Of a stretch of 18,606 bases of DNA, positions 3,411-17,901 are shown one piece after another. The notes under the pieces were generated by a model. It saw only the letters and a list, made by a program, of their open reading frames with translations. It searched no databases and was not told the DNA's origin. The DNA is taken from UHGV virus genome UHGV-0096816, one strand, 5' to 3'. Each line of letters starts with the position of its first letter. Position 1 is the first letter of the stretch. The translations under genes were made by a program, and so were the position numbers. The DNA comes from a virus.

Positions 3411-4538
3411 TTACAATGCTACTTTGCTCCAACCTTTCCCTCGGTCATCATGGTAACGATCGGTTTGCTGCTGGGTTTTATGGCCCAGTAACTTTCTGGT
3501 ATCAATCCCTTGTTCTTTGTAAAGACGCTCAGATAAAGATCTTTGTTCATGAAAAGTTGCTGGAGTTCCAGTACCCCAATCAATTTCTGCCAGATCACGT
3601 GCCTTGCTAAAGTTCATCGTTAGTGTATTAGCTTTTACCTGTGCGCCACGTTCAGCCTGTGATGTAGTACGGAAAAAATGCACTAAGTATGGGCTGACTG
3701 CGTAGTCACGGCAGCGAGCTACTACATCACGTAAACACCAGTTGATAGCATTCAAACGTAAAGAAAGAGGGATAGCGATTTTGCTCCCGGTCTTTTCCTG
3801 AATGACGTGAAGATGATCCTCCCAAATATCACTAAATTTCATTTTGGATATATCTCCTAAACGCTGCCCAGTGACCAAAGCTAGGAGCATGGCATTTCCC
3901 ATATAACGATGAGCGGCGTCTGCGATATCGAATATTTTTTTCCATTCTTCTAGGCTGAGGCGTTGACGGCTAATTTTCCTTCTGGGTTGCTTCGTTGCAA
4001 GAGCAGGGTTATACCCTGGTGGAACTTCGCCGTAATGCTGTGCTTCCTTAAACACATCGATCAATACAGACCTTACGACCTGGGCCATTCTAGGCTGTCC
4101 AGCAGAGATATACTCATCAAGTAATTGTGCTATATCTCTGACATCAACGGCTGATATCAACTTCAGTCCTGCTCGTTCCCTGAGCAAGGATACTGGTTTG
4201 GCTTTCTGTTTATAGGTGTTGAGCTTTATATCGCCACTTTTCAGTCTGTCTTCCTGGATTGCTTGATAGCGATCTAACCAGGTTGACGTTGTGATTGCTT
4301 TTCCTTTGCTGGTTGCGATCCTGTCACTGATAGCCAGAATCTGCCGGGTTCTTTGCTCAGCCAGGCGTGAATTTGCCTCAGTGGCAATAGCAATGGCTTC
4401 AGCTTCGTTTGTGCCTAAAGAATGAAACTTCCCGGTCACTGGATGTTTATATCGCCAATAGACTTTATTTACTTTTCTACTATAAAGCGGATACAAGTTC
4501 GGGACTGAAACATTATTTTTACGTGGTCTGGCTGCCAT
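3411..4538 (-). CDS. int: phage tyrosine integrase (lambda Int family)
   Basis: 375-aa ORF. N-terminus (PNLY..., TGK.. LG) and C-terminus LLGHKTQQQTDRYHDDRGKGWSKV parallel lambda Int (LLGHKSDTMASQYRDDRGREW), including the catalytic-Tyr region. 5' end overlaps the xis 3' end as in lambda. Confidence 0.9.
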   Translation of the reverse strand: MAARPRKNNVSVPNLYPLYSRKVNKVYWRYKHPVTGKFHSLGTNEAEAIAIATEANSRLAEQRTRQILAISDRIATSKGKAITTSTWLDRYQAIQEDRLKSGDIKLNTYKQKAKPVSLLRERAGLKLISAVDVRDIAQLLDEYISAGQPRMAQVVRSVLIDVFKEAQHYGEVPPGYNPALATKQPRRKISRQRLSLEEWKKIFDIADAAHRYMGNAMLLALVTGQRLGDISKMKFSDIWEDHLHVIQEKTGSKIAIPLSLRLNAINWCLRDVVARCRDYAVSPYLVHFFRTTSQAERGAQVKANTLTMNFSKARDLAEIDWGTGTPATFHEQRSLSERLYKEQGIDTRKLLGHKTQQQTDRYHDDRGKGWSKVAL

Positions 4539-4807: not shown

Positions 4808-5356
4808 TTAATTTCGCTGTCTGGATTGTTTATGCATCTTATGCAGCTCTTTAAAGCGTTCCATAAACATCCCGTAGGCATGGCCCGGTGCCAGTGGAAT
4901 CACGTTGAACATCTCTGTTGCCGGGATGCCTTCCAGTACAGGCCAGAAAGAGCCATCATCAAGCCCGAGATCGCGGCGTTCGGTTGCCAGCATGATGAGA
5001 TCGGCATATTTCACGGGCGTACTCATAACCGGGGGTAACCCGTATTTCTCACGGATTACGGCGTCTATTTTTTCTTCCATCTGTTTATAGTCAGGAAGAA
5101 GGCGTTTCAGTGGAGCGGGGATGTCCTGGCAATACACTTCTGTTGCATCATGCATTAACGCTTCAAAAGCAAATTCCTGCGGTACCAGTTGGCTGCAAAG
5201 AACCGCATGTTGGGCGACGCTGTAGAAGTGTGAAAGATGTCCTGCAAAGCGACAGATATTTGAAAGGGAAAACGCGATATCGTTAATAACGATATCGTCT
5301 TTATTTATCCTGTCATAATAAAAATGCTTCCCAGAAAAAGTTTTAATAAATGACAT
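4808..5356 (-). CDS. HD-domain phosphohydrolase (YfdR-like putative 5'-deoxynucleotidase)
   Basis: H...HD metal-binding motifs (HLSHFYSVAQHAVL; ALMHDATEVY). Start set at MSFIKT, preceded by GGAGAACAAA. The length (182 aa) is close to E. coli CPS-53 YfdR as I recall it; the family resemblance is from memory and was not searched. Confidence 0.7.
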   Translation of the reverse strand: MSFIKTFSGKHFYYDRINKDDIVINDIAFSLSNICRFAGHLSHFYSVAQHAVLCSQLVPQEFAFEALMHDATEVYCQDIPAPLKRLLPDYKQMEEKIDAVIREKYGLPPVMSTPVKYADLIMLATERRDLGLDDGSFWPVLEGIPATEMFNVIPLAPGHAYGMFMERFKELHKMHKQSRQRN

Positions 5357-5484
5357 TTTGTTCTCCACGTTATTTGCGCTGCACCGCACTGAATTCTGGT
5401 AAAAGGAAGCCCTCACCATCCGGCGATTATTGAGTTAATTACGTTTCCATAAATGCCCCCGCAGGGGCATTTGCAGTAATCAAA

Positions 5485-6309
5485 TCAGGCGGTGAAAGTA
5501 CCAATAAAGGTTTCTACTTTGCTGTCTTTGAATTTCTCAACAAGCAGATCGCGAAATTCGTTAGCCATTTCTTCCTGCACCGCCTCCAGCTGAATAATGC
5601 GCAGAACAAGTACAGGACGATCGCCAGTGATAATGCTGAGGCGTAATTTAAAAGAACGTTCTTTCAGACCTTCAAACGGAACGCATTTAAATTCAAATGC
5701 CACTGGCATAATGTCTTTGGTCTTCGCTTCGACAGACTCCATCAGGGAGCGTTTGCCGCTGAAGTCATTGTCTTCAAAATCAGCAGTCTGGTTCGCTTCA
5801 ATTGTGATTTTACGGATCGCCGCAGCCGCTTTGGTTGCCTGAATGGCGTCACCATTAGCATCAAAGCCCACAAGGTTGTCGGCCCAGTCTTCAATCCATT
5901 CTGCCAGTGATTTCTGGGAGTTACGCTCGCCGTGAACAGACAACAGAGCAGAGAACGGTGCTGTCTTTTTCAGTTTGAGAGTGGCGGTGTTATCTGCGTG
6001 GCCTGGTTCATCAATAGTACCCAGGTTAAGCACACTGACGGCACGCATATTATCAGCATCGATAAAGCAGCGGGTGCCTTCATCTGCAAGATCTTTAGAA
6101 TAACGGGTAAAGTCATCAATGCTGGCAGTGGAAAGCGCACCACGGAAACGGAAGCGATTTAAATTAAATTTTTCCAGGTCATGAATGCGGAAATTCTCAG
6201 GCAATGCCACAGCATCGGCACCAATCTTACTGATAATTTCATTAACACCCTGAGCAGAAATAAGGGCATGGATTTGATTAATTGCGGTTGCGTCTAAGTT
6301 CTGAGACAT
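5485..6309 (-). CDS. conserved prophage protein of unknown function (YfdQ-like by size and position)
   Basis: 274-aa ORF with a GAGGA RBS 8 nt upstream of the ATG; same strand and operon as the flanking genes. No catalytic motif recognised. Confidence 0.6.
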
Positions 6310-6374
6310 AATAAGTCCTCACTATATAAAGATATTCAGTGATGAGATAAATAATCAGTTAATTAAAAACGATA

Positions 6375-6737
6375 TTAACGACCTGCTGCGCGGAGTTTTC
6401 CGTCAGGTTCACCGGCAAGAGTCAGTAACTGTCCCTGGTCTTCCTGCAGAATAGTCAGGCGACCACCGCGATTGACATACATCGGCGTTTCGGTGGTGTC
6501 TTCTTCGGAAATTTTCCCGCGGTTAGTCGGGCGAACATATGAGAGTTTGTGTTTGATTTTCACACGGTTCTCATCAAATGGTTCGATTTCCAGGTTGAGT
6601 GAGACCTTACCTTTGGTTTTCGTGTTCATCACACCGGAAGCGACTTCACTGAGAACTGCGCCGATTTTGGTTTCAAATACGCCGCCGTCCAGCTCCCCGA
6701 TAAATGCCTGCACATCAGTACTGCGTTCGCTAGCCAT
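6375..6737 (-). CDS. hypothetical early-left protein (120 aa; YfdP-like by size and position)
   Basis: Start set at MASERSTD, preceded by GAGGAG about 8 nt upstream. The longer ORF in the track (to 7055) runs into GC-rich structured non-coding DNA without an RBS. Confidence 0.6.
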   Translation of the reverse strand: MASERSTDVQAFIGELDGGVFETKIGAVLSEVASGVMNTKTKGKVSLNLEIEPFDENRVKIKHKLSYVRPTNRGKISEEDTTETPMYVNRGGRLTILQEDQGQLLTLAGEPDGKLRAAGR

Positions 6738-6786
6738 TTTGCTGCTCCTCATCATATCGACCCTGCAAGGCCGATTAGTTTCTCCA

Positions 6787-6873
6787 CAAAACAGAGAAGA
6801 ACACCTGCGGTGGCAGCCGCCCGGATGGATTGGGTTATGAGCCCGTCGTCCGGTGATGCTCTTCTCTGTTTTG
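6787..6873 (-). ncRNA. structured leader element upstream of the early-left operon (long-range stem enclosing GC hairpins); function unknown
   Basis: caaaacagagaaga (6787-6800) is a perfect inverted repeat of tcttctctgttttg (6860-6873), with inner hairpins gcgg/ccgc and ccgga/tccgg. It lies 50-130 nt upstream of the RBS of the 120-aa gene on the minus-strand transcript. Confidence 0.35.
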
Positions 6874-7138
6874 TAAAAAGGACGGTACCAGCCGGAAGCA
6901 AGGGTACAAACTGGTACCGCCAGGACTACACACAGCATAAAGTTGTAGTGCCGGGTGCCTCCCGGTGCCTGGCGAAGGTTGCACACCAGGCGGGTGGGTA
7001 TCCACAGAAGGTCGACTGTCAGCCTCAACCTTAACCCGCGTGCGCTGAGCCGCATTCACCACAACGCTAAGGATTCTCTCTGGTTGAAAATACTTAGCTG
7101 TTATGTGCCTGCTTTTAGCCACATCAGGCGAGGTGGAC

Positions 7139-7190
7139 CTGGTTATTCCCCAACAACAAGGATTCGGTTAATCTGGTTATCCCCAACAAC
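7139..7190. repeat. two direct repeats CTGGTTAT(T)CCCCAACAAC with 34-bp periodicity, immediately upstream of the 144-aa plus-strand gene
   Basis: Repeat 1 at 7139-7157, repeat 2 at 7173-7190 (one T deleted). The second ends 15 nt before the ATG at 7206. Confidence 0.6.
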
Positions 7191-7205
7191 GCAAAAGGAA
7201 AAGAA

Positions 7206-7640
7206 ATGTCCGGTAATATCTATACGCTGTACAAATCCCACTGTGAAAATGTTGGAAAGTATCGGGGCATTGAAATCAGTGGGGTAGTGTCATCAGTCGA
7301 AATAAGCAAAGTTGAATCAAGGGCAACATTACTTACTCTTCTGGACCTTGTCTTACATGAGCACCGGAAGAAATTCGGCACTCCCTATAATCAGTTGAAT
7401 GGGAAAAAGGCTCTGGTTCACCTTATTCTGATGAAGCATCACTGGATGCCAAAACAGATTAATGAGATGAAATTTGATGAACTTCTTCTTTCAATTCAGG
7501 ATGAACTCACACTTGATAAAATAAGCGTAACCGCCCAGAAATTTTTAGATTATCGAGACTGGAGATCACAAATTCATCACTTTGATGATTTTGACGAAAA
7601 TGAATGGGATCCTAATTTGTCTGCACAATATCTAAAGTAA
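7206..7640 (+). CDS. hypothetical protein (144 aa), opposite-strand moron-like gene inside the early-left region
   Basis: ORF with AAAGGAAAAGAA RBS-like stretch before the ATG; opposite in orientation to the surrounding leftward operon; AT-rich. No recognisable motif. Confidence 0.5.
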   Translation: MSGNIYTLYKSHCENVGKYRGIEISGVVSSVEISKVESRATLLTLLDLVLHEHRKKFGTPYNQLNGKKALVHLILMKHHWMPKQINEMKFDELLLSIQDELTLDKISVTAQKFLDYRDWRSQIHHFDDFDENEWDPNLSAQYLK

Positions 7641-7818
7641 CATCCTGTGATAAAACCGTGATTTCCTGATCCAGTTTTTTTAAGGAGTCTATTGTTTCCT
7701 GTCGATAAGACAGCACTTCACGAAGCTGGTTTATAGCTGCCAGCTTCTTTGTCATCCACTCATAAATTTCCTCATCTGTGTAGCCAGGCGCGACGATTTT
7801 GGGTTCTGTTTTGTGCAT
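7612..7818 (-). CDS. hypothetical small protein (68 aa), first ORF downstream of the OL-like operators
   Basis: Strong RBS GAGGAGG 6 nt upstream of ATG (MHKTEPK...). Its 3' end overlaps the 3' end of the convergent 144-aa gene by 29 nt. Not Arg-rich, so not an obvious N analogue. Confidence 0.4.
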   Translation of the reverse strand: MHKTEPKIVAPGYTDEEIYEWMTKKLAAINQLREVLSYRQETIDSLKKLDQEITVLSQDVTLDIVQTN

Positions 7819-7876
7819 TTCACACCTCCTCAAGTTATCAGTTACTTGTTGATGGGGACCAGATTGTTAAAGAGCT

Positions 7877-7905
7877 AAGCGTCCTGTAGGGCGCTTTTTT
7901 GTTGC
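7877..7905 (+). terminator. intrinsic terminator-like hairpin followed by a T6 tract
   Basis: Stem agcgtcc / ggcgct (7 bp, one G-U pair) with loop tgta, then TTTTTTG; oriented for plus-strand transcripts approaching the immunity region. Confidence 0.45.
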
Positions 7906-8066
7906 TAACGAATCATCCTGGACTTCATATGCCCCAGGCGGCTACTTCGTGGGCGTCCTGCCTGTTCGTTTTTGACATTTACTGACTGCTTACGACACAT
8001 GCACCGTGTTGCAACCAGATTTTGTTGTAATCCTGTAGTTGGTCTGGAATAAAAGATAAAATTAAA

Positions 8067-8103
8067 TTGCGAGATATGCAAGTGATATTTGCGAGATATG
8101 CAA
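8067..8103. promoter_or_regulatory. OL-like operator pair: two exact copies of TTGCGAGATATGCAA, 22 bp centre to centre
   Basis: Exact 15-mers at 8067-8081 and 8089-8103, just downstream of the repressor gene's 3' end. The same half-site pattern recurs in the cI-cro intergenic region. Confidence 0.6.
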
Positions 8104-8157: not shown

Positions 8158-8850
8158 TTAATTATGTCTCTTAAGGGTTTGCGACTGACTGATTAAGACC
8201 TTTCCAAAGACCATGAATCGGTGTTCGTTTTCGCTAGTAATTCCCCATTCACGGTAAATCTGGTTATCAGAAATCACCAGCAGTTTGTCAGGAATCATTT
8301 GAAGTCTTTTAACGTATATTTTGTCATCAAAACCAAAGACATATATACCATCACCATCAAACTGATTGATGCTGACATCAACGAAGATGAGATCTCCTGG
8401 CTCAATGGTTGGACACATACTGTCCCCACGAACGTTGATAACTTTGATGTGATTGGCTGGTCGTCCGCCGAACATTGATACAGCATTATCAGTTCTGTAT
8501 TCGATGGCATGAATCACATCAATGACATCACCGCCCTGGATAAGGCCATTTCCCGCACTGGCACTGATATCCAGCATTTCAATACGGAACACATCCTTCA
8601 CCTGCGCAACATCCTCATTATTACTGTTTTTATATACAGTATTACTTTTGTGGGCAGAGGTAAAGAGATCAGCAATATCAACACCTAAGCTCTTGGCAAT
8701 ATTACTCAGTGTTTGTTCGGTAAATTGTTTTTGCTTACCCGTTTCTAAGCGCGAGATGTTCGCCGCATCTACTCCTATCGCTTCAGCGAGATCGGCGATT
8801 TTCATGTTCTTCGCTTGGCGAAGTTGTCTGACTCGGTTTCCTATGTTCAT
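8158..8850 (-). CDS. CI-like prophage repressor (HTH_XRE + S24/LexA-type peptidase domain)
   Basis: N-terminal HTH (LRQAKNMKIADLAEAIGVDAANISRLETGK); C-terminal S24 motifs (VRGDSMCPTIEPGDLIFVD ... YVKRL). Divergent from the cro-like gene. Confidence 0.85.
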   Translation of the reverse strand: MNIGNRVRQLRQAKNMKIADLAEAIGVDAANISRLETGKQKQFTEQTLSNIAKSLGVDIADLFTSAHKSNTVYKNSNNEDVAQVKDVFRIEMLDISASAGNGLIQGGDVIDVIHAIEYRTDNAVSMFGGRPANHIKVINVRGDSMCPTIEPGDLIFVDVSINQFDGDGIYVFGFDDKIYVKRLQMIPDKLLVISDNQIYREWGITSENEHRFMVFGKVLISQSQTLKRHN

Positions 8851-8947: not shown

Positions 8948-9208
8948 ATGCAATCACCATTACGAAATGTGCGTAAGGCGCATGGTTTCACTTTGCAGCA
9001 TGTTGCTGCGGGTGTTCAAGTCAATCCAGCGACGTTGAGTCGTATTGAGAGGCTGGAGCAGATTCCATCTATCGAGCTTGCAGAACGTTTAGCCAATTTT
9101 TTTAAGGGTGAAGTCAGCGAAATGCAGATTCTTTATCCGGCACGTTTTCAATCTAGCCAAAACCAGAATGGGTTTAAACCACAGGAACAGGAGGTGAACC
9201 GTGGGTAA
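8948..9208 (+). CDS. Cro-like HTH transcriptional regulator
   Basis: 86-aa ORF divergent from the repressor; HTH-like segment FTLQHVAAGVQVNPATLSRIE. Confidence 0.7.
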   Translation: MQSPLRNVRKAHGFTLQHVAAGVQVNPATLSRIERLEQIPSIELAERLANFFKGEVSEMQILYPARFQSSQNQNGFKPQEQEVNRG

Positions 9209-9752
9209 GCATCACTGGAAAGTAGAAAAACAGCCTGAGTGGTACGTGAAAGCTGTCAGAAAAACTATCGCAGCGTTGCCGGGGGGGTACGCTGAAGCTG
9301 CTGACTGGCTGGATGTAACAGAGAACGCATTATTTAACCGCCTTCGTGCCGATGGCGATCAGATTTTCCCGCTGGGATGGGCAATGATTTTGCAACGTGC
9401 TGGTGGAACTCACTTCATTGCTGACGCTGTGGCGCAGTCTGCAAATGGCGTCTTTGTGTCTCTTCCTGATGTCGAGGATGTGGACAACGCCGATATCAAC
9501 CAACGCCTGCTGGAGGTCATTGAACAGATCGGCAGTTATTCAAAACAGATTCGTTCAGCAATTGAAGACGGTGTAGTGGAACCGCATGAGAAGACAGCAA
9601 TTAACGACGAGCTGTACCTCTCAATTTCGAAGCTGCAGGAGCATGCAGCACTGGTCTACAAAATTTTTTGCATTTCAGAAAGTAATGACGCCCGCGAGTG
9701 TGCAGCTCCGGGCGCCGTGGCGTGTCGTGACTGTGGAGAAACTAACGCATGA
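9201..9752 (+). CDS. early regulatory protein (CII-position; YmfL-like by size and position)
   Basis: GTG start preceded by GGAGG at 7-nt spacing; overlaps the cro-like stop. 183 aa. Function inferred from position only. Confidence 0.5.
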
Positions 9753-14717: not shown

Positions 14718-14735
14718 TTTTTTCGGAGAAAGTTG

Positions 14736-15122
14736 ATGCGTAATATACAGATGATCCTTGAACGTTGGGGGGCATGGGCAGCGAGTGATAGCTCAGGAGT
14801 TGACTATTCGTCTATAGCTGCTGGGTTTAAGGGGCTTCTTCCATATACCAGAAAGACACGTCTAGCTTGTTCAGATAGTGATGCATTAATTATTGAAGGT
14901 AGCCTTGCTCTTCTTAAGAAGAGAAAACCGTACGAACATTCTTTGATTGTGGCTCATTACCTGTATGGCATCTCGAAAAGAAAGATCGCAAAGGCACGTA
15001 ATAAAGACGAAAAATTGATACGTATCGAGATACAGGTTGCTGAAGGTTTTATCGATGGCTGCCTAAGTATGCTGGATGTGAAACTTGAAATGGATGACTA
15101 CTCTGAGTCTCCTGTAGCATGA
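14736..15122 (+). CDS. late-gene antiterminator Q (phage-82/QuuD-like family)
   Basis: MRNIQMILERWGAWAA ... SSIAAGFKGLLP resembles the N-terminus of enterobacterial Q antiterminators as recalled. GGAGAAAG RBS; located upstream of the lysis genes. Confidence 0.65.
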   Translation: MRNIQMILERWGAWAASDSSGVDYSSIAAGFKGLLPYTRKTRLACSDSDALIIEGSLALLKKRKPYEHSLIVAHYLYGISKRKIAKARNKDEKLIRIEIQVAEGFIDGCLSMLDVKLEMDDYSESPVA

Positions 15123-15733
15123 AATAATGAAACGACCATATGTCTTACATAATATGGTTGATTTGTAGCTGGATGCAATGTTGTACTCATGAATCGCAAG
15201 GGATTATCCTCGTCGGTTGTAATTTTTGCATCAGCTACTTCCTGCTGAAGATGCTTTCGCCAGTCATCAAGTCTCTCGCCAGATTTCTTAATTTTACAGT
15301 AAATGATAATGCCACCATGGTTGTCACGCGCAGTGCCAGTGCCATATCGCTCGTTGAGCTGGTTCCATCCACCTAAGATGTACGCAGGACCTTTCCATAA
15401 TTTAGCTTCGCCAATCCATGCAAATCGGCCGAGCTGATGTTTAACTAATATATCTATATGCCCTCCATGCTGAGTGTCATGTTCAGCGTCATAATTACGG
15501 CCTTTCAAAAAAGCAATAATAACTGATGTGAGCTCATCTTCACCCCACTGCTGTGTTTGATACATATGTTTTTGGGTTTCCAAAACATACATCGCGTCAT
15601 CAAGGTCAACGTAAAGTTGCTTCACGAAATCGTCGTGACTTGCTGCAAATTTTCGCTTAAGAAAACCAGACAATTCAGGGTCAAATTGACTTAAGGTGTC
15701 TAATTGGGCAAGGTTGAAATTACATTCACTCAT
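15098..15733 (-). CDS. cassette gene 3: hypothetical protein with PD-(D/E)xK-like nuclease motif (candidate effector)
   Basis: Segment GEDELTSVIIAF ... GGHIDILVKHQLGRFAWIGEAKLWKG gives an E ... D ... ExK spacing typical of PD-(D/E)xK nucleases. Its 3' end overlaps the Q 3' end convergently by 25 nt. Confidence 0.55.
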   Translation of the reverse strand: MSECNFNLAQLDTLSQFDPELSGFLKRKFAASHDDFVKQLYVDLDDAMYVLETQKHMYQTQQWGEDELTSVIIAFLKGRNYDAEHDTQHGGHIDILVKHQLGRFAWIGEAKLWKGPAYILGGWNQLNERYGTGTARDNHGGIIIYCKIKKSGERLDDWRKHLQQEVADAKITTDEDNPLRFMSTTLHPATNQPYYVRHMVVSLFHATGDSE

Positions 15734-16148
15734 GTAATTCCTCCAAAGCCTCAGTAGGAGTGAAGTATGGGAACAAATAATGATTATAATTATCGACTAA
15801 TTGACCACTGTAAGGATGATAAAACTTACCTGTATGAAGCGCATGAGACACGTCATCATCATCGACGGGAATAGGATCACTATCGTCAGACTCGATATAC
15901 TGGAAATGCATATCTAGCAAGTGCATTCTGTTGCTCGAAAGATAGTCAGTTACTTTGATCAGTAAAACTTTGGCATCGTTATTTTGCACATCAAGCTTAG
16001 TACCATTAACCAAACTTACATATGTTATGTGTTTCAGTGACTTAGCTTCTTTGCTGGTTAAAAAATCAACCACAACACGACATAAATCTCCAACCGGCCC
16101 ATGTAGGTCGTGGTTGATTTTCGAGTATATGTCGTGTTTAGTTAACAT
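15726..16148 (-). CDS. cassette gene 2: hypothetical small acidic protein (about 140 aa)
   Basis: ATG preceded by AAGAG RBS; acidic stretch ESDDSDPIPVDDDD; overlaps gene 3 start by 8 nt. Confidence 0.5.
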   Translation of the reverse strand: MLTKHDIYSKINHDLHGPVGDLCRVVVDFLTSKEAKSLKHITYVSLVNGTKLDVQNNDAKVLLIKVTDYLSSNRMHLLDMHFQYIESDDSDPIPVDDDDVSHALHTGKFYHPYSGQLVDNYNHYLFPYFTPTEALEELHE

Positions 16149-16158
16149 AATCAACTCT

Positions 16159-17256
16159 TTATGCAGCCTCGTCAGTGGCTCGCTTTCTCTGTATGCTTGA
16201 TAGTGACTCTAACATCTTGTTGATTACAAACAAAATATGCTCAATTGAGGAGCAACGATCTATGATTGCATCATAAAGGTGACTGTTCGGTTTATCAATC
16301 ATAGCCCGTTTACCTGGCAGTATTAATTCTACAGGGAAAACTTGAGAAGCTGAATCAGTCAGATCCCAAATTTTACCGAGTTTGTATTTCGTTAGTATGG
16401 GACTTGCCTCTTCGCCCCCATGATGGTAGCTGTCTGAGCGCAAGCAGCTTTCACCCGGACGGAGTTTTAATGAGCTGGTGTTTCCATCTGATGTAAGAAA
16501 TGACATCTGCGAGATTCTACCATCTGTTTGCTCGTACATTTCTTGTACTAATCCAAAGAGGTCAATGGGCGCAGGTAAAGTCAAACCAGTAGTAGTTCTA
16601 ATAAACTGATCAAGCAAAAATTGCTGTCGTTCCGACTCTGAACGAGGCATCACAGATAAATCAACAGTGAGCGCAAGTAAATGCAACTCGGGTAGAATCA
16701 TTATTGTATTAAAGCACTGTGTAACTTCACGTGTTTTACATTTGATTTCACCACCATTGGAGCGAAGAGCTAGCCCAGCATCGCTTAAATGGGTCGCGTC
16801 GAGTTCAATAGTTTCTGTGTAGTATGCTTTCGACGTAAGAATCGTTGTTTCTAAAGAAACTTTGTTTACGACAGAAAATGTAGTTTCTAAAAAATGAAGA
16901 TCTGTATCAGCTGCAAGCAACACATCTTTAGGCAAAGGATATGGATAGCTTTCGCAAAAAACGGATTCGTCTCTTTCTAGGGCATTTATATTCTCCCGTA
17001 GAGTTTGCACTTCTTCCGGTTCTAACTTATACAGCTTAACTAAACGGGTCCCACTCAATAGTAAATTTTGCCATACTTCACCTATATGAGTACTTACAGC
17101 TTCCTGATCTACATCTTCTGTTGCTTGGAGCCTCGCGATAAATGGGTCAAGGCCAACTGATGTGACACCAAGTGGTTCCCCCACAATTTTTTTTGTGAGC
17201 TTCCATCCAACACGTTCGGTGATATCTCTTAAAAGGTTGATCGTTTGCTCATTCAT
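16159..17256 (-). CDS. cassette gene 1: hypothetical protein (about 365 aa), candidate sensor or scaffold component
   Basis: Start set at ATG (MNEQTINLL...); the ORF track extends to a TTG at 17298. No recognisable catalytic motif. AT-rich. Stop is 10 nt from the start of the next gene. Confidence 0.55.
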   Translation of the reverse strand: MNEQTINLLRDITERVGWKLTKKIVGEPLGVTSVGLDPFIARLQATEDVDQEAVSTHIGEVWQNLLLSGTRLVKLYKLEPEEVQTLRENINALERDESVFCESYPYPLPKDVLLAADTDLHFLETTFSVVNKVSLETTILTSKAYYTETIELDATHLSDAGLALRSNGGEIKCKTREVTQCFNTIMILPELHLLALTVDLSVMPRSESERQQFLLDQFIRTTTGLTLPAPIDLFGLVQEMYEQTDGRISQMSFLTSDGNTSSLKLRPGESCLRSDSYHHGGEEASPILTKYKLGKIWDLTDSASQVFPVELILPGKRAMIDKPNSHLYDAIIDRCSSIEHILFVINKMLESLSSIQRKRATDEAA

Positions 17257-17401
17257 AAGAAACCCTTTTTTGTATTTTTTTGTACTTTTTGAAGGCAATT
17301 TAGATAGTCCTTAACATACTAAATTAACGAACATATTTCATTAGCACGGTCCGCAAAAAGTGATGTATCGTGTTAAGAGTGGTTACTTCGCCACACAACT
17401 T

Positions 17402-17574: not shown

Positions 17575-17901
17575 ATGCCTCATAACCCAAATACCTGGCT
17601 GGAGTTGGTCCAGAGCTGGTGGCGTGGAGACACACCGCTGGGCGCAGTGATTATGTCGATTGTTATGGCTGGTTTACGTATCGCCTATTTTGGCGGTGGT
17701 GGCGGCTGGAAGCGAAAAACACTCGAAATTCTACTCTGTGGCGCTCTGACGCTGACTTTTGCATCCGCTCTTGAGTATGTCGGATGGCCTAAATCACTAT
17801 CTGTTGCCATTGGTGGTGGGGTGGGGCTGATCGGTGTCGATGCTATTCGTGGGGCTGCAATGCGAGTAATCGGTAACAAATTTGGTGGCTCTAAGGAGTA
17901 A
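17575..17901 (+). CDS. holin (class I, three predicted transmembrane segments)
   Basis: 108 aa with three hydrophobic segments (LGAVIMSIVMAGLRIAYF; LEILLCGALTLTFASALEYV; LSVAIGGGVGLIGVDAI) and a charged C-terminus; immediately precedes the endolysin. Confidence 0.7.
   Translation: MPHNPNTWLELVQSWWRGDTPLGAVIMSIVMAGLRIAYFGGGGGWKRKTLEILLCGALTLTFASALEYVGWPKSLSVAIGGGVGLIGVDAIRGAAMRVIGNKFGGSKE

Follow-up and report, generated by a model that had tools for sequence, protein, structure and literature searches.

A plus-strand ECs1072-family gene cassette in the early-left region of an SfIV-type lambdoid prophage

The DNA analyzed here (the window, 18,606 nt of the virus genome UHGV-0096816) is a lambdoid prophage of the SfIV/SfII/SfV/ST64B type (E. 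coli/Shigella). Our subject is a small cassette between the PL/OL region and the yfdP-like gene, in which a gene for a 144-aa protein lies on the plus strand, antisense to leftward transcription, and a 68-aa open reading frame (ORF) on the minus strand converges with it. Matches of the region come from SfIV, Kati and phages of the SfII/SfV type, where the genes are annotated as hypothetical. In particular, the 144-aa gene corresponds to the hypothetical ORF36 of SfIV, and the 68-aa ORF is unannotated in that phage. Positions of the features are collected in Table 1.

Table 1. Features of the cassette and landmarks of the window
Feature	Position	Strand	Remarks
Conserved leader/promoter element, GCCTG..CCAC.TCAGGCG.GGTGG..	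7105-7163	+	includes direct repeat 1; cross-genus alignment
Direct repeat 1 (DR1), CTGGTTATTCCCCAACAAC	7139-7157	+	
Direct repeat 2 (DR2), CTGGTTATCCCCAACAAC	7173-7190	+	
DR2 with -10-like TAATCT (7169-7174) and AAGGA ribosome-binding site (RBS); left inverted arm 7170-7190	7169-7205	+	promoter by eye
ECs1072-family gene, 144 aa, cassette cargo	7206-7640	+	ATG ORF; matches NF033230 and PHROG 5286
YdfC-family ORF, 68 aa, coiled-coil	7612-7818	-	ATG 7818-7816, stop 7614-7612
Extra hairpin inside the 68-aa ORF	7722-7747	+	-15.6 kcal/mol, z -4.3; U run short
Right inverted arm (third, inverted repeat copy)	7845-7865	-	specific for cargo type
Exact consensus boxA GCTCTTTAACAA on the leftward PL transcript	7864-7875	-	only match in the window at <=2 mismatches
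Intrinsic terminator of the plus-strand cassette (8-bp stem, loop UGUA, U6)	7877-7902	+	stem 7877-7896, then TTTTTT
PL/OL region: cI operators 8067-8081 and 8089-8103 over a TTGCAT-17-TATCTT promoter	8053-8103	-	operator motif recurs at OR; promoter by eye
Integrase	3411-4538	-	
YfdR-, YfdQ- and YfdP-like early-left genes	4808-7055	-	
cI	8158-8850	-	
cro	8948-9208	+	
CII-like (CP76) gene	9201-9752		
Q	14733-15122		
Holin	17575-17901		

The convergent gene pair

An earlier interpretation made from the letters alone (the sequence-only reading) had proposed a 144-aa plus-strand gene in this region, and both family membership and selection bear it out. The protein matches the NCBIfam profile NF033230 (ECs1072 family phage-associated protein) with 157.8 bits at a curated cut-off of 70 (protein residues 4-144, profile positions 2-142 of 142), and PHROG 5286 over its whole length (1-144 of 144, E 1.5e-90). 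Across 38 distinct cassette copies, 21 synonymous and 3 non-synonymous polymorphisms were counted in this gene, compared with a ratio of 265:1031 for random mutation (omega ~0.04, p 3.5e-12). The gene is under strong purifying selection, and the polymorphism pattern rules out a spurious ORF. The ECs1072 family comprises 76 cluster representatives at 50% identity, as identified by an exhaustive profile search, most of them stand-alone proteins of ~145-155 aa and the remainder fragment-like. Of 5426 complete E. coli genomes, 408 (~7.5%) have the cassette in full.

The AlphaFold2 (AF2) model of the 144-aa protein is all-helical, with a predicted local distance difference test score (pLDDT) of 94.7, and the protein is predicted to be all-alpha and cytoplasmic; neither the sequence nor the helical model gave any sign of membrane segments, no dedicated prediction having been run. 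Searches of Pfam, PADLOC and PDB sequences with this protein identified no relative, and Foldseek found no match in PDB for an AF2 model built from 4 sequences (pLDDT 78.5). Two possible assignments were considered and rejected: the motifs defining HEPN proteins are absent, as is the H...HD...D metal-binding motif of HD-domain phosphohydrolases, for which there is also no significant fold match. A microarray study of E. coli O157:H7 Sakai (PMC2241611) lists ECs1072 among the genes with altered expression in growth transitions.

The 68-aa ORF on the minus strand, preceded by the GAGGAGG RBS (7831-7825, 6 nt 5' of the ATG), is likewise present as the sequence-only reading had it. It matches PHROG 1744 in positions 1-68 of 68 (E 6e-35), and since the profile is matched end to end, the start codon is confirmed. 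The ORF is 40% identical to phage genes annotated as ydfC. It has 10 synonymous and 14 non-synonymous polymorphisms in the 38 cassette variants (omega ~0.39, p 0.02), being less constrained than the 144-aa gene, with purifying selection still visible. Pfam and PADLOC searches with the 68-aa ORF gave nothing, and no published function was found for YdfC. In E. coli K-12, YdfC is encoded in the dicB operon of the Qin prophage; apart from the full-length family match, it shares with the 68-aa ORF the position of an early-left gene 3' of a repressor-controlled promoter. In Qin-type prophages, however, ydfC is preceded by ydfA and ydfB, and a scan of one such locus detected no ECs1072 gene.

The two ORFs overlap by 29 nt at their 3' ends (7612-7640), in agreement with the sequence-only reading, which had described the 68-aa ORF as the first leftward gene overlapping the cargo. 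The overlap thus stands, but the small ORF is more than a first-gene neighbor, being a recurrent convergent partner of ECs1072 genes. A homologous small ORF, convergent to the ECs1072 gene with overlapping 3' ends, is found at 11 of 14 ECs1072 loci, and a small partner at 5 of the 15 loci that have other cargo (Fisher p 0.025, the loci counted not being phylogenetically independent). In the case of ST64B and the Klebsiella phage KPP5665-2, full-length ECs1072 genes (family profile, E ~1e-42) are located between Q and holin, antisense to their neighbors and in convergent overlap with a small ORF, whose motif P.[FI][FY]..G....[EQ]L..W[LM] is followed by a coiled coil. The same convergent arrangement is observed in lambdoid prophages of Yersinia, Pectobacterium, Proteus, Morganella, Serratia and E. 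albertii, and P2-like prophages of Pantoea carry the pair between cox and a replication gene. The pair therefore spans three operon contexts, namely, the lambdoid PL operon, the Q-holin region and the P2-like early operon. Moreover, a hidden Markov model (HMM) derived from eight partners in other genomes ranks the 68-aa ORF at the top of 316 ORFs of the window (E 1.1e-6; the next one has 0.071), and by this profile its homology to the partners elsewhere is confirmed.

Two further observations concern the pair. The palindrome TGGGATCCCA occurs in the 3' overlaps of ST64B (L004 3209-3279) and KPP5665-2 (L005 3197-3291), where it specifies W-D-P on either strand, once for the ECs1072 protein and once for its small partner; in phage SKA5, whose small ORF stands alone, the corresponding residues are W-E-S. 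In the E. albertii locus L138 (699-1312), the small ORF is near-identical to that of the window over its first 52 codons and has a different C-terminus, and the convergent ECs1072 gene is only 72% identical to the window gene; this mosaic indicates a recombination breakpoint inside the cassette.

The cargo slot and its flanking signals

SfV and SfII are homologous to the window up to 7136 and again from 7907, and carry other small genes between these points. Four other E. coli prophages, among them one in CFT073, retain the flanks up to ~7176-7190 and from ~7853-7861, with unrelated plus-strand genes between. Viral contigs scanned with the conserved right flank gave 126 loci with six cargo types: the ECs1072 and YdfC-like pair of the window (144 and 68 aa), a 170-aa protein with a signal peptide, two types of coiled-coil/zinc-ribbon proteins (163-165 aa), a 167-aa protein, and a 159-aa membrane protein. 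All of the other five cargo proteins belong to PHROG families of unknown function; four of them were scanned against PADLOC, and no family was matched. In a Yersinia relative, SieB (PF14163) directly adjoins the ECs1072 gene.

As six cargo types share the flanks and SieB is a neighbor of the Yersinia gene, the interpretation of this position as a slot for morons, or accessory genes, is well supported by sequence comparison. Presence of the cassette in close relatives is patchy (SfV and SfII lack it, and five other cargo types occupy the same flanks), and the cargo has a terminator of its own, judging by the strand-asymmetric hairpin with the U6 tail. The flanks common to the six cargo types, together with the leader conserved 5' of many cargo genes (see below), mark a moron hotspot that adjoins cI in SfV/ST64B/e14/CPS-53-like prophages.

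The sequence-only reading had likened this position to that of lysogen-expressed exclusion genes of other lambdoid phages. The accessory slot is upheld by the six cargo types and the Yersinia SieB, but exclusion as the function is not: the 144-aa protein has no Pfam or PADLOC hit that would place it with RexAB or SieB, and because there is neither such homology nor a PADLOC hit, exclusion is only a guess. Lambda rexAB and sieB of P22 and lambda are lysogen-expressed genes that resemble the 144-aa gene in the map position beside the repressor, in or next to the PL operon, but show no sequence or domain similarity to it. Moreover, rexAB is co-transcribed with cI, whereas the 144-aa gene has signals of its own and is encoded on the other strand.

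Two direct repeats had been described 5' of the 144-aa gene, and they were found at 7139 and 7173 as two copies of CTGGTTAT(T)CCCCAACAAC with the start-to-start spacing of 34; an 18-mer match at <=3 mismatches is expected 0.02 times in shuffled windows. The regions upstream of the cargo align across E. coli, Shigella, Yersinia, Pectobacterium, Proteus and Morganella as a unit of ~60 nt, GCCTG..CCACCTCAGGCGGCGGTGG-TATCTTGG-N14-CCAAGA-RBS-ATG. A genome-wide pattern scan adds Serratia, Xenorhabdus, Edwardsiella, Ewingella, Rahnella, Rouxiella, Symbiopectobacterium and Acerihabitans, and the unit is located directly 5' of at least 15 different ORFs in at least 12 genera of Enterobacterales (loci L143-L193). 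It includes an extended -10 box, TGnTATCTT, in SfII, Yersinia, Pectobacterium, Proteus, Morganella and the genera from the pattern scan. DR1 (ACCTGG-TTATTCCCCAACAA-CAAGGA) and DR2 (TAATCTGG-TTATCCCCAACAAC-..AAAAGGA) both align to the single ancestral unit; the -10 box is lost in DR1 and kept as TAATCT in DR2, and in one locus (L009) the sequence at the DR2 -10 position is a perfect TATAAT. The simplest interpretation of these alignments, and the one we prefer, is that the direct repeats arose by tandem duplication of the promoter/leader.

The palindrome CCACC-N9-GGTGG in the upstream part of the unit is strongly conserved in sequence and not only in pairing potential. RNAalifold predicts only a 5-bp stem with one compensatory change in the conserved leader, and the possibility of a structured RNA is unsupported by this prediction. 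A short hairpin before the RBS of the conserved unit has the compensatory variants CCTCT/AGAGG and CCTTC/GAAGG.

Downstream of the cargo, the plus-strand terminator proposed earlier is well formed on that strand, with a hairpin of -11.5 kcal/mol that includes a G-U pair and is followed by the U6 tail, while on the minus strand the same stem has a C-A mismatch, reaches -7.5 kcal/mol, and lacks a U run. It is kept with all six cargo types. The hairpin inside the 68-aa ORF, which the sequence-only reading had not mentioned, is a possible first stop for the plus-strand transcript. A transcript that does reach the terminator spans the whole 68-aa ORF, and the PL transcript, in turn, spans the whole 144-aa gene.

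Two elements next to the terminator, the right arm and boxA, had been overlooked in the sequence-only reading. All six cargo types are bracketed by inverted arms, which match within a type and differ between types (AATCTGGATGACT in the CFT073 type, AATCTT... in another). The predicted arm duplexes range from -16 to -31 kcal/mol, compared with -6 to -9 for shuffled arms, and in five of the six types the duplex is more stable on the minus-strand RNA than on the plus-strand RNA. In distant modules, no flanking inverted repeats above chance were found. The boxA directly adjoins both the right arm and the terminator, and matches in all 12 positions UGCUCUUUAACAA, the rrn boxA consensus. It is kept in the E. 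albertii locus L138 and in a variant, L196, where the cargo is in the sense orientation and the terminator has decayed. A search for boxA in the distant modules found it absent, and SfV and SfII have neither boxA nor arms with the same downstream operon.

Three other interpretations of the repeats and arms were considered. The sequence-only reading implied that the repeats are regulator sites; extended to the inverted arm, DR1, DR2 and the inverted copy would bind a regulator that controls the cassette promoter and loops the DNA to its PL-proximal end. Indeed, there are three copies of the 18-19 nt motif, two of them flanking the predicted -10 box and one inverted 670 bp away, and the palindrome described above is highly conserved. 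However, a pair of regulator sites does not fit the alignment of both direct copies to one ancestral unit, most genera having a single copy, and the sequence of DR2 and of the inverted arm depends on the cargo type, that of DR1 being constant. The secreted and the membrane protein among the cargo cannot be the binder, and no candidate for this role was identified. Regulation through these sites is thus improbable.

The arms could also be terminal inverted repeats, or recombination scars, of small mobile cassettes exchanged between prophages. In favor of this, they bound the cargo exactly in the six types, with conserved sequence outside, and a CCAGATT-TTAA-like motif is seen by eye at several junctions, one of them in SfV. 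Still, no transposase or integrase is encoded, the 126 viral loci contain no copy outside the prophage slot and no cargo in inverted form (in the 408 E. coli genomes with the full cassette, slot restriction and orientation were judged from match statistics and a sample of the matches only), and homologous recombination in the conserved flanks is sufficient for the exchange. Mobility of this kind seems very unlikely.

The third interpretation concerns the PL transcript. The element resembles the rrn-type boxA antitermination system (boxA is also known upstream of CRISPR arrays and suhB) in the 12-nt boxA, identical to the consensus, in the hairpin 5' of boxA, and in the long untranslated RNA downstream. 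At the same time, it differs from that system in the lack of boxC and of a second site in the rightward operon, and in its absence from sister phages with the same operon. A lambda-type nut site with nutL-N control was rejected: the hairpin is 5' and not 3' of boxA, the sequence 3' of it varies with the cargo, and the window has neither a second boxA nor an ORF recognized as N-like. A scan against Rfam gave only a sub-threshold match to STnc100 (see below).

Since boxA recruits NusB/E, which can block Rho-dependent termination (PMC12360218), boxA and the arms may work together as an RNA device of the PL transcript. By loading NusB/NusE, as it does in rrn operons, boxA would let RNA polymerase cross ~650 nt of untranslated antisense cargo without Rho-dependent termination; pairing of the right arm with DR2 would loop this segment out, and RNase III might excise it. 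Such a device would account for the position of the perfect boxA directly beside the right arm, the agreement of arms within and not between cargo types, the preference of the duplex for the minus-strand RNA, and retention of boxA where the terminator has decayed. Moreover, the predicted plus-strand start, assigned by eye, would leave half of DR2 outside the plus-strand mRNA. On the other hand, SfV and SfII maintain the same downstream operon with neither element, distant modules lack both, and true two-sided changes of the arms are seen in only two cargo types. Concerted evolution of inverted repeats could produce the same pattern without any function, and boxA can also promote Rho-dependent termination, so the effect could go either way (PMC12360218). 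Read-through combined with looping-out may thus be regarded as a minority hypothesis, which we consider rather unlikely.

Probable expression in the lysogen and the proposed role

Among lambdoid morons, which are extra genes with a promoter and a terminator of their own, the closest known counterpart of the 144-aa gene is STMMW_20121 of the Salmonella prophage ST64B, which is transcribed in lysogeny from its own promoter, antisense to lytic genes (Owen et al. 2020, PMC7067206). The two proteins are homologous (family HMM E 8e-43; ~30% identity). STMMW_20121 (2090066-2090500, 435 nt) adjoins the holin gene and overlaps STMMW_20131 (sb50) by 71 nt (Table S5, PMC7067206), which is identical to the geometry of the ST64B ECs1072 homologue (L004 2845-3279) and sb50 in our set. 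In the same study, STMMW_20121 reaches 60-270 transcripts per million (TPM) in 16 of 17 conditions, and its small partner STMMW_20131 reaches 22-258 TPM; for comparison, the values are 65-520 TPM for cI, 0.3-33 TPM for holin, and 1.5-7 TPM for the Q-like gene (PMC7067206). By analogy, the 144-aa gene is probably expressed in the lysogen as well.

The ST64B module thus resembles that of the window in having a homologous gene antisense to lytic genes and a convergent overlapping small ORF. The gene's own lysogenic promoter is mapped in ST64B, and a counterpart is predicted in the window. They differ in location (between Q and holin in ST64B, beside cI/PL in the window), and the duplicated leader, inverted arms and boxA, all present in the window, are missing in ST64B.

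Taken as a whole, the best explanation, to which we assign a probability of about 65%, is a self-contained plus-strand cassette, consisting of a duplicated promoter/leader, RBS, ECs1072 gene and terminator, inserted in the slot between PL/OL and the yfdP-like gene, expressed in the lysogen and damped by antisense transcription from PL. By analogy with ST64B, the 144-aa gene would be transcribed from its own weak sigma-70 promoter while cI holds PL off, and the protein would be present in the lysogen. After induction, PL transcription would cross the cassette in antisense, the YdfC-like 68-aa ORF being translated first, and collision of polymerases together with antisense pairing would damp the cargo gene. 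The sequence-only reading had already proposed antisense interference of this kind. Its geometry remains plausible, but transcription of the ST64B partner in lysogens as well gives no support to a simple on/off antagonism.

As recurrent convergent partners, the ECs1072 and YdfC-like proteins most likely act on the same process. Moreover, the small gene often stands alone, and the large one rarely does, which suggests that the role of the large protein is tied to the small one; for the same reason we tentatively favor modulation or guarding of the small protein by the large one. Our best guess is that the cassette serves the lysogen either in phage-phage conflict or in regulation.

Several observations weigh against the self-contained, lysogen-expressed cassette with its dedicated partner. 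The consensus scan called no sigma-70 promoter 5' of the 144-aa gene, and the -10 box TAATCT was assigned by eye, with no -35 box. Transcription of both ST64B genes in the lysogen disagrees with a strict scheme in which the large gene serves lysogeny and the small one lytic growth. The partnership is not exclusive, as YdfC-like ORFs are found beside four or five unrelated cargo genes, and alone in phage SKA5 (between Q and holin) and in Qin-type prophages, while the ECs1072 locus L139 has no partner; the dependence among the loci counted above has to be added here.

The pair could also be toxin-antitoxin-like, or combine defence with self-immunity, so that one protein would harm the cell or phage replication, the other would neutralize it, and the convergent overlap would set their ratio. 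Recurrence of the pair at 22-56% identity in three unrelated operon contexts, conservation of the 3' overlap (with the length from 29 to ~230 nt), and transcription of both ST64B genes in the lysogen are consistent with this. Still, the genes converge, whereas those of type II systems are co-transcribed, neither protein is similar to any toxin, antitoxin or defence family, and the small gene occurs without the large one, both alone and beside unrelated cargo. Such a pair is possible, but we are inclined to doubt it. Membership in type II toxin-antitoxin systems proper was rejected, as there is no shared operon and no recognizable toxin or antitoxin fold.

Surroundings of the cassette and implications

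To the right of the cassette, the cI operator motif TTGCG-N5-TGCAA occurs in two copies left of cI (8067, 8089) and two copies between cI and cro (8871, 8919). The OL-like operators of the sequence-only reading, TTGCGAGATATGCAA at 8067 and 8089, are real, since the same motif, in related copies, recurs at OR. The leftward promoter TTGCAT-17-TATCTT was read by eye and was not called by the consensus scan; its transcription start would fall near 8046. The segment 7907-7973 of the PL leader is 92-98% conserved in the heteroimmune phages SfV, SfII and SfIV and in the CFT073 prophage, with a variable immunity region on one side and variable cargo on the other.

To the left, the minus-strand stretch 6873-7095, which spans the 5' untranslated region and the beginning of the yfdP-like gene and lies outside the cassette, matches the small RNA STnc100 below the Rfam threshold (38.7 bits, gathering threshold 47, E 3e-6). 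In ST64B, the gene in the position corresponding to the yfdP-like one, STMMW_20251 (downstream of cI, adjoining STMMW_20261 of the DUF2303 size), has 17-290 TPM in lysogens, which by analogy points to a possible leftward start immediately left of the cassette. The 110-aa ORF with a GTG start at 6955-7287 on the plus strand (ORF35 of SfIV, SfIV_35) covers the entire leader and reaches into the beginning of both the yfdP-like and the 144-aa gene; it lacks independent support and is probably an annotation artefact.

Farther away, past the integrase end and outside the prophage, two plus-strand genes (35-2418) encode a 515-aa AAA_21/AAA_15 ATPase and, downstream, a 279-aa HNH protein, the stop codon of the first overlapping the start codon of the second; they look like a Septu-type PtuA/PtuB defence pair. 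Between Q and holin, three minus-strand ORFs of 211, 142 and 379 aa with no Pfam match (15098-17298) lie in antisense. This interval is a second accessory slot, the one that holds the ECs1072 module in ST64B and Klebsiella phages. SfV reportedly has P4-like termination immunity in its rightward orf37/Ash region; this region is absent from the window, and the idea was set aside.

In kind, the 144-aa gene is an ordinary moron, and the features that stand out are the inverted arms, boxA and the leader shared across genera. One might see an antisense cargo bay in the E. coli/Shigella version of the slot, where a bidirectional element would serve as the terminator of the cargo mRNA on one strand and, on the other, supply an rrn-like hairpin and boxA, followed by the 5' arm of the cargo-specific long-range stem; the lytic PL transcript could then cross the cargo, loop it out and perhaps excise it; independently, the ECs1072 and YdfC-like proteins would form a two-protein system kept by convergent overlap across phage types. 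This joint construction is hardly probable as a whole.

More immediately, the 68-aa ORF is a real gene that can be added to the annotations of SfIV-type genomes, and the ECs1072 family, so far named but uncharacterized, is now tied to published expression in the lysogen and to a recurrent partner. The hotspot can be mined for new lysogen-expressed functions. Should boxA and the arms turn out to have a function, they would illustrate how an insert on the opposite strand can be tolerated in an essential phage operon.

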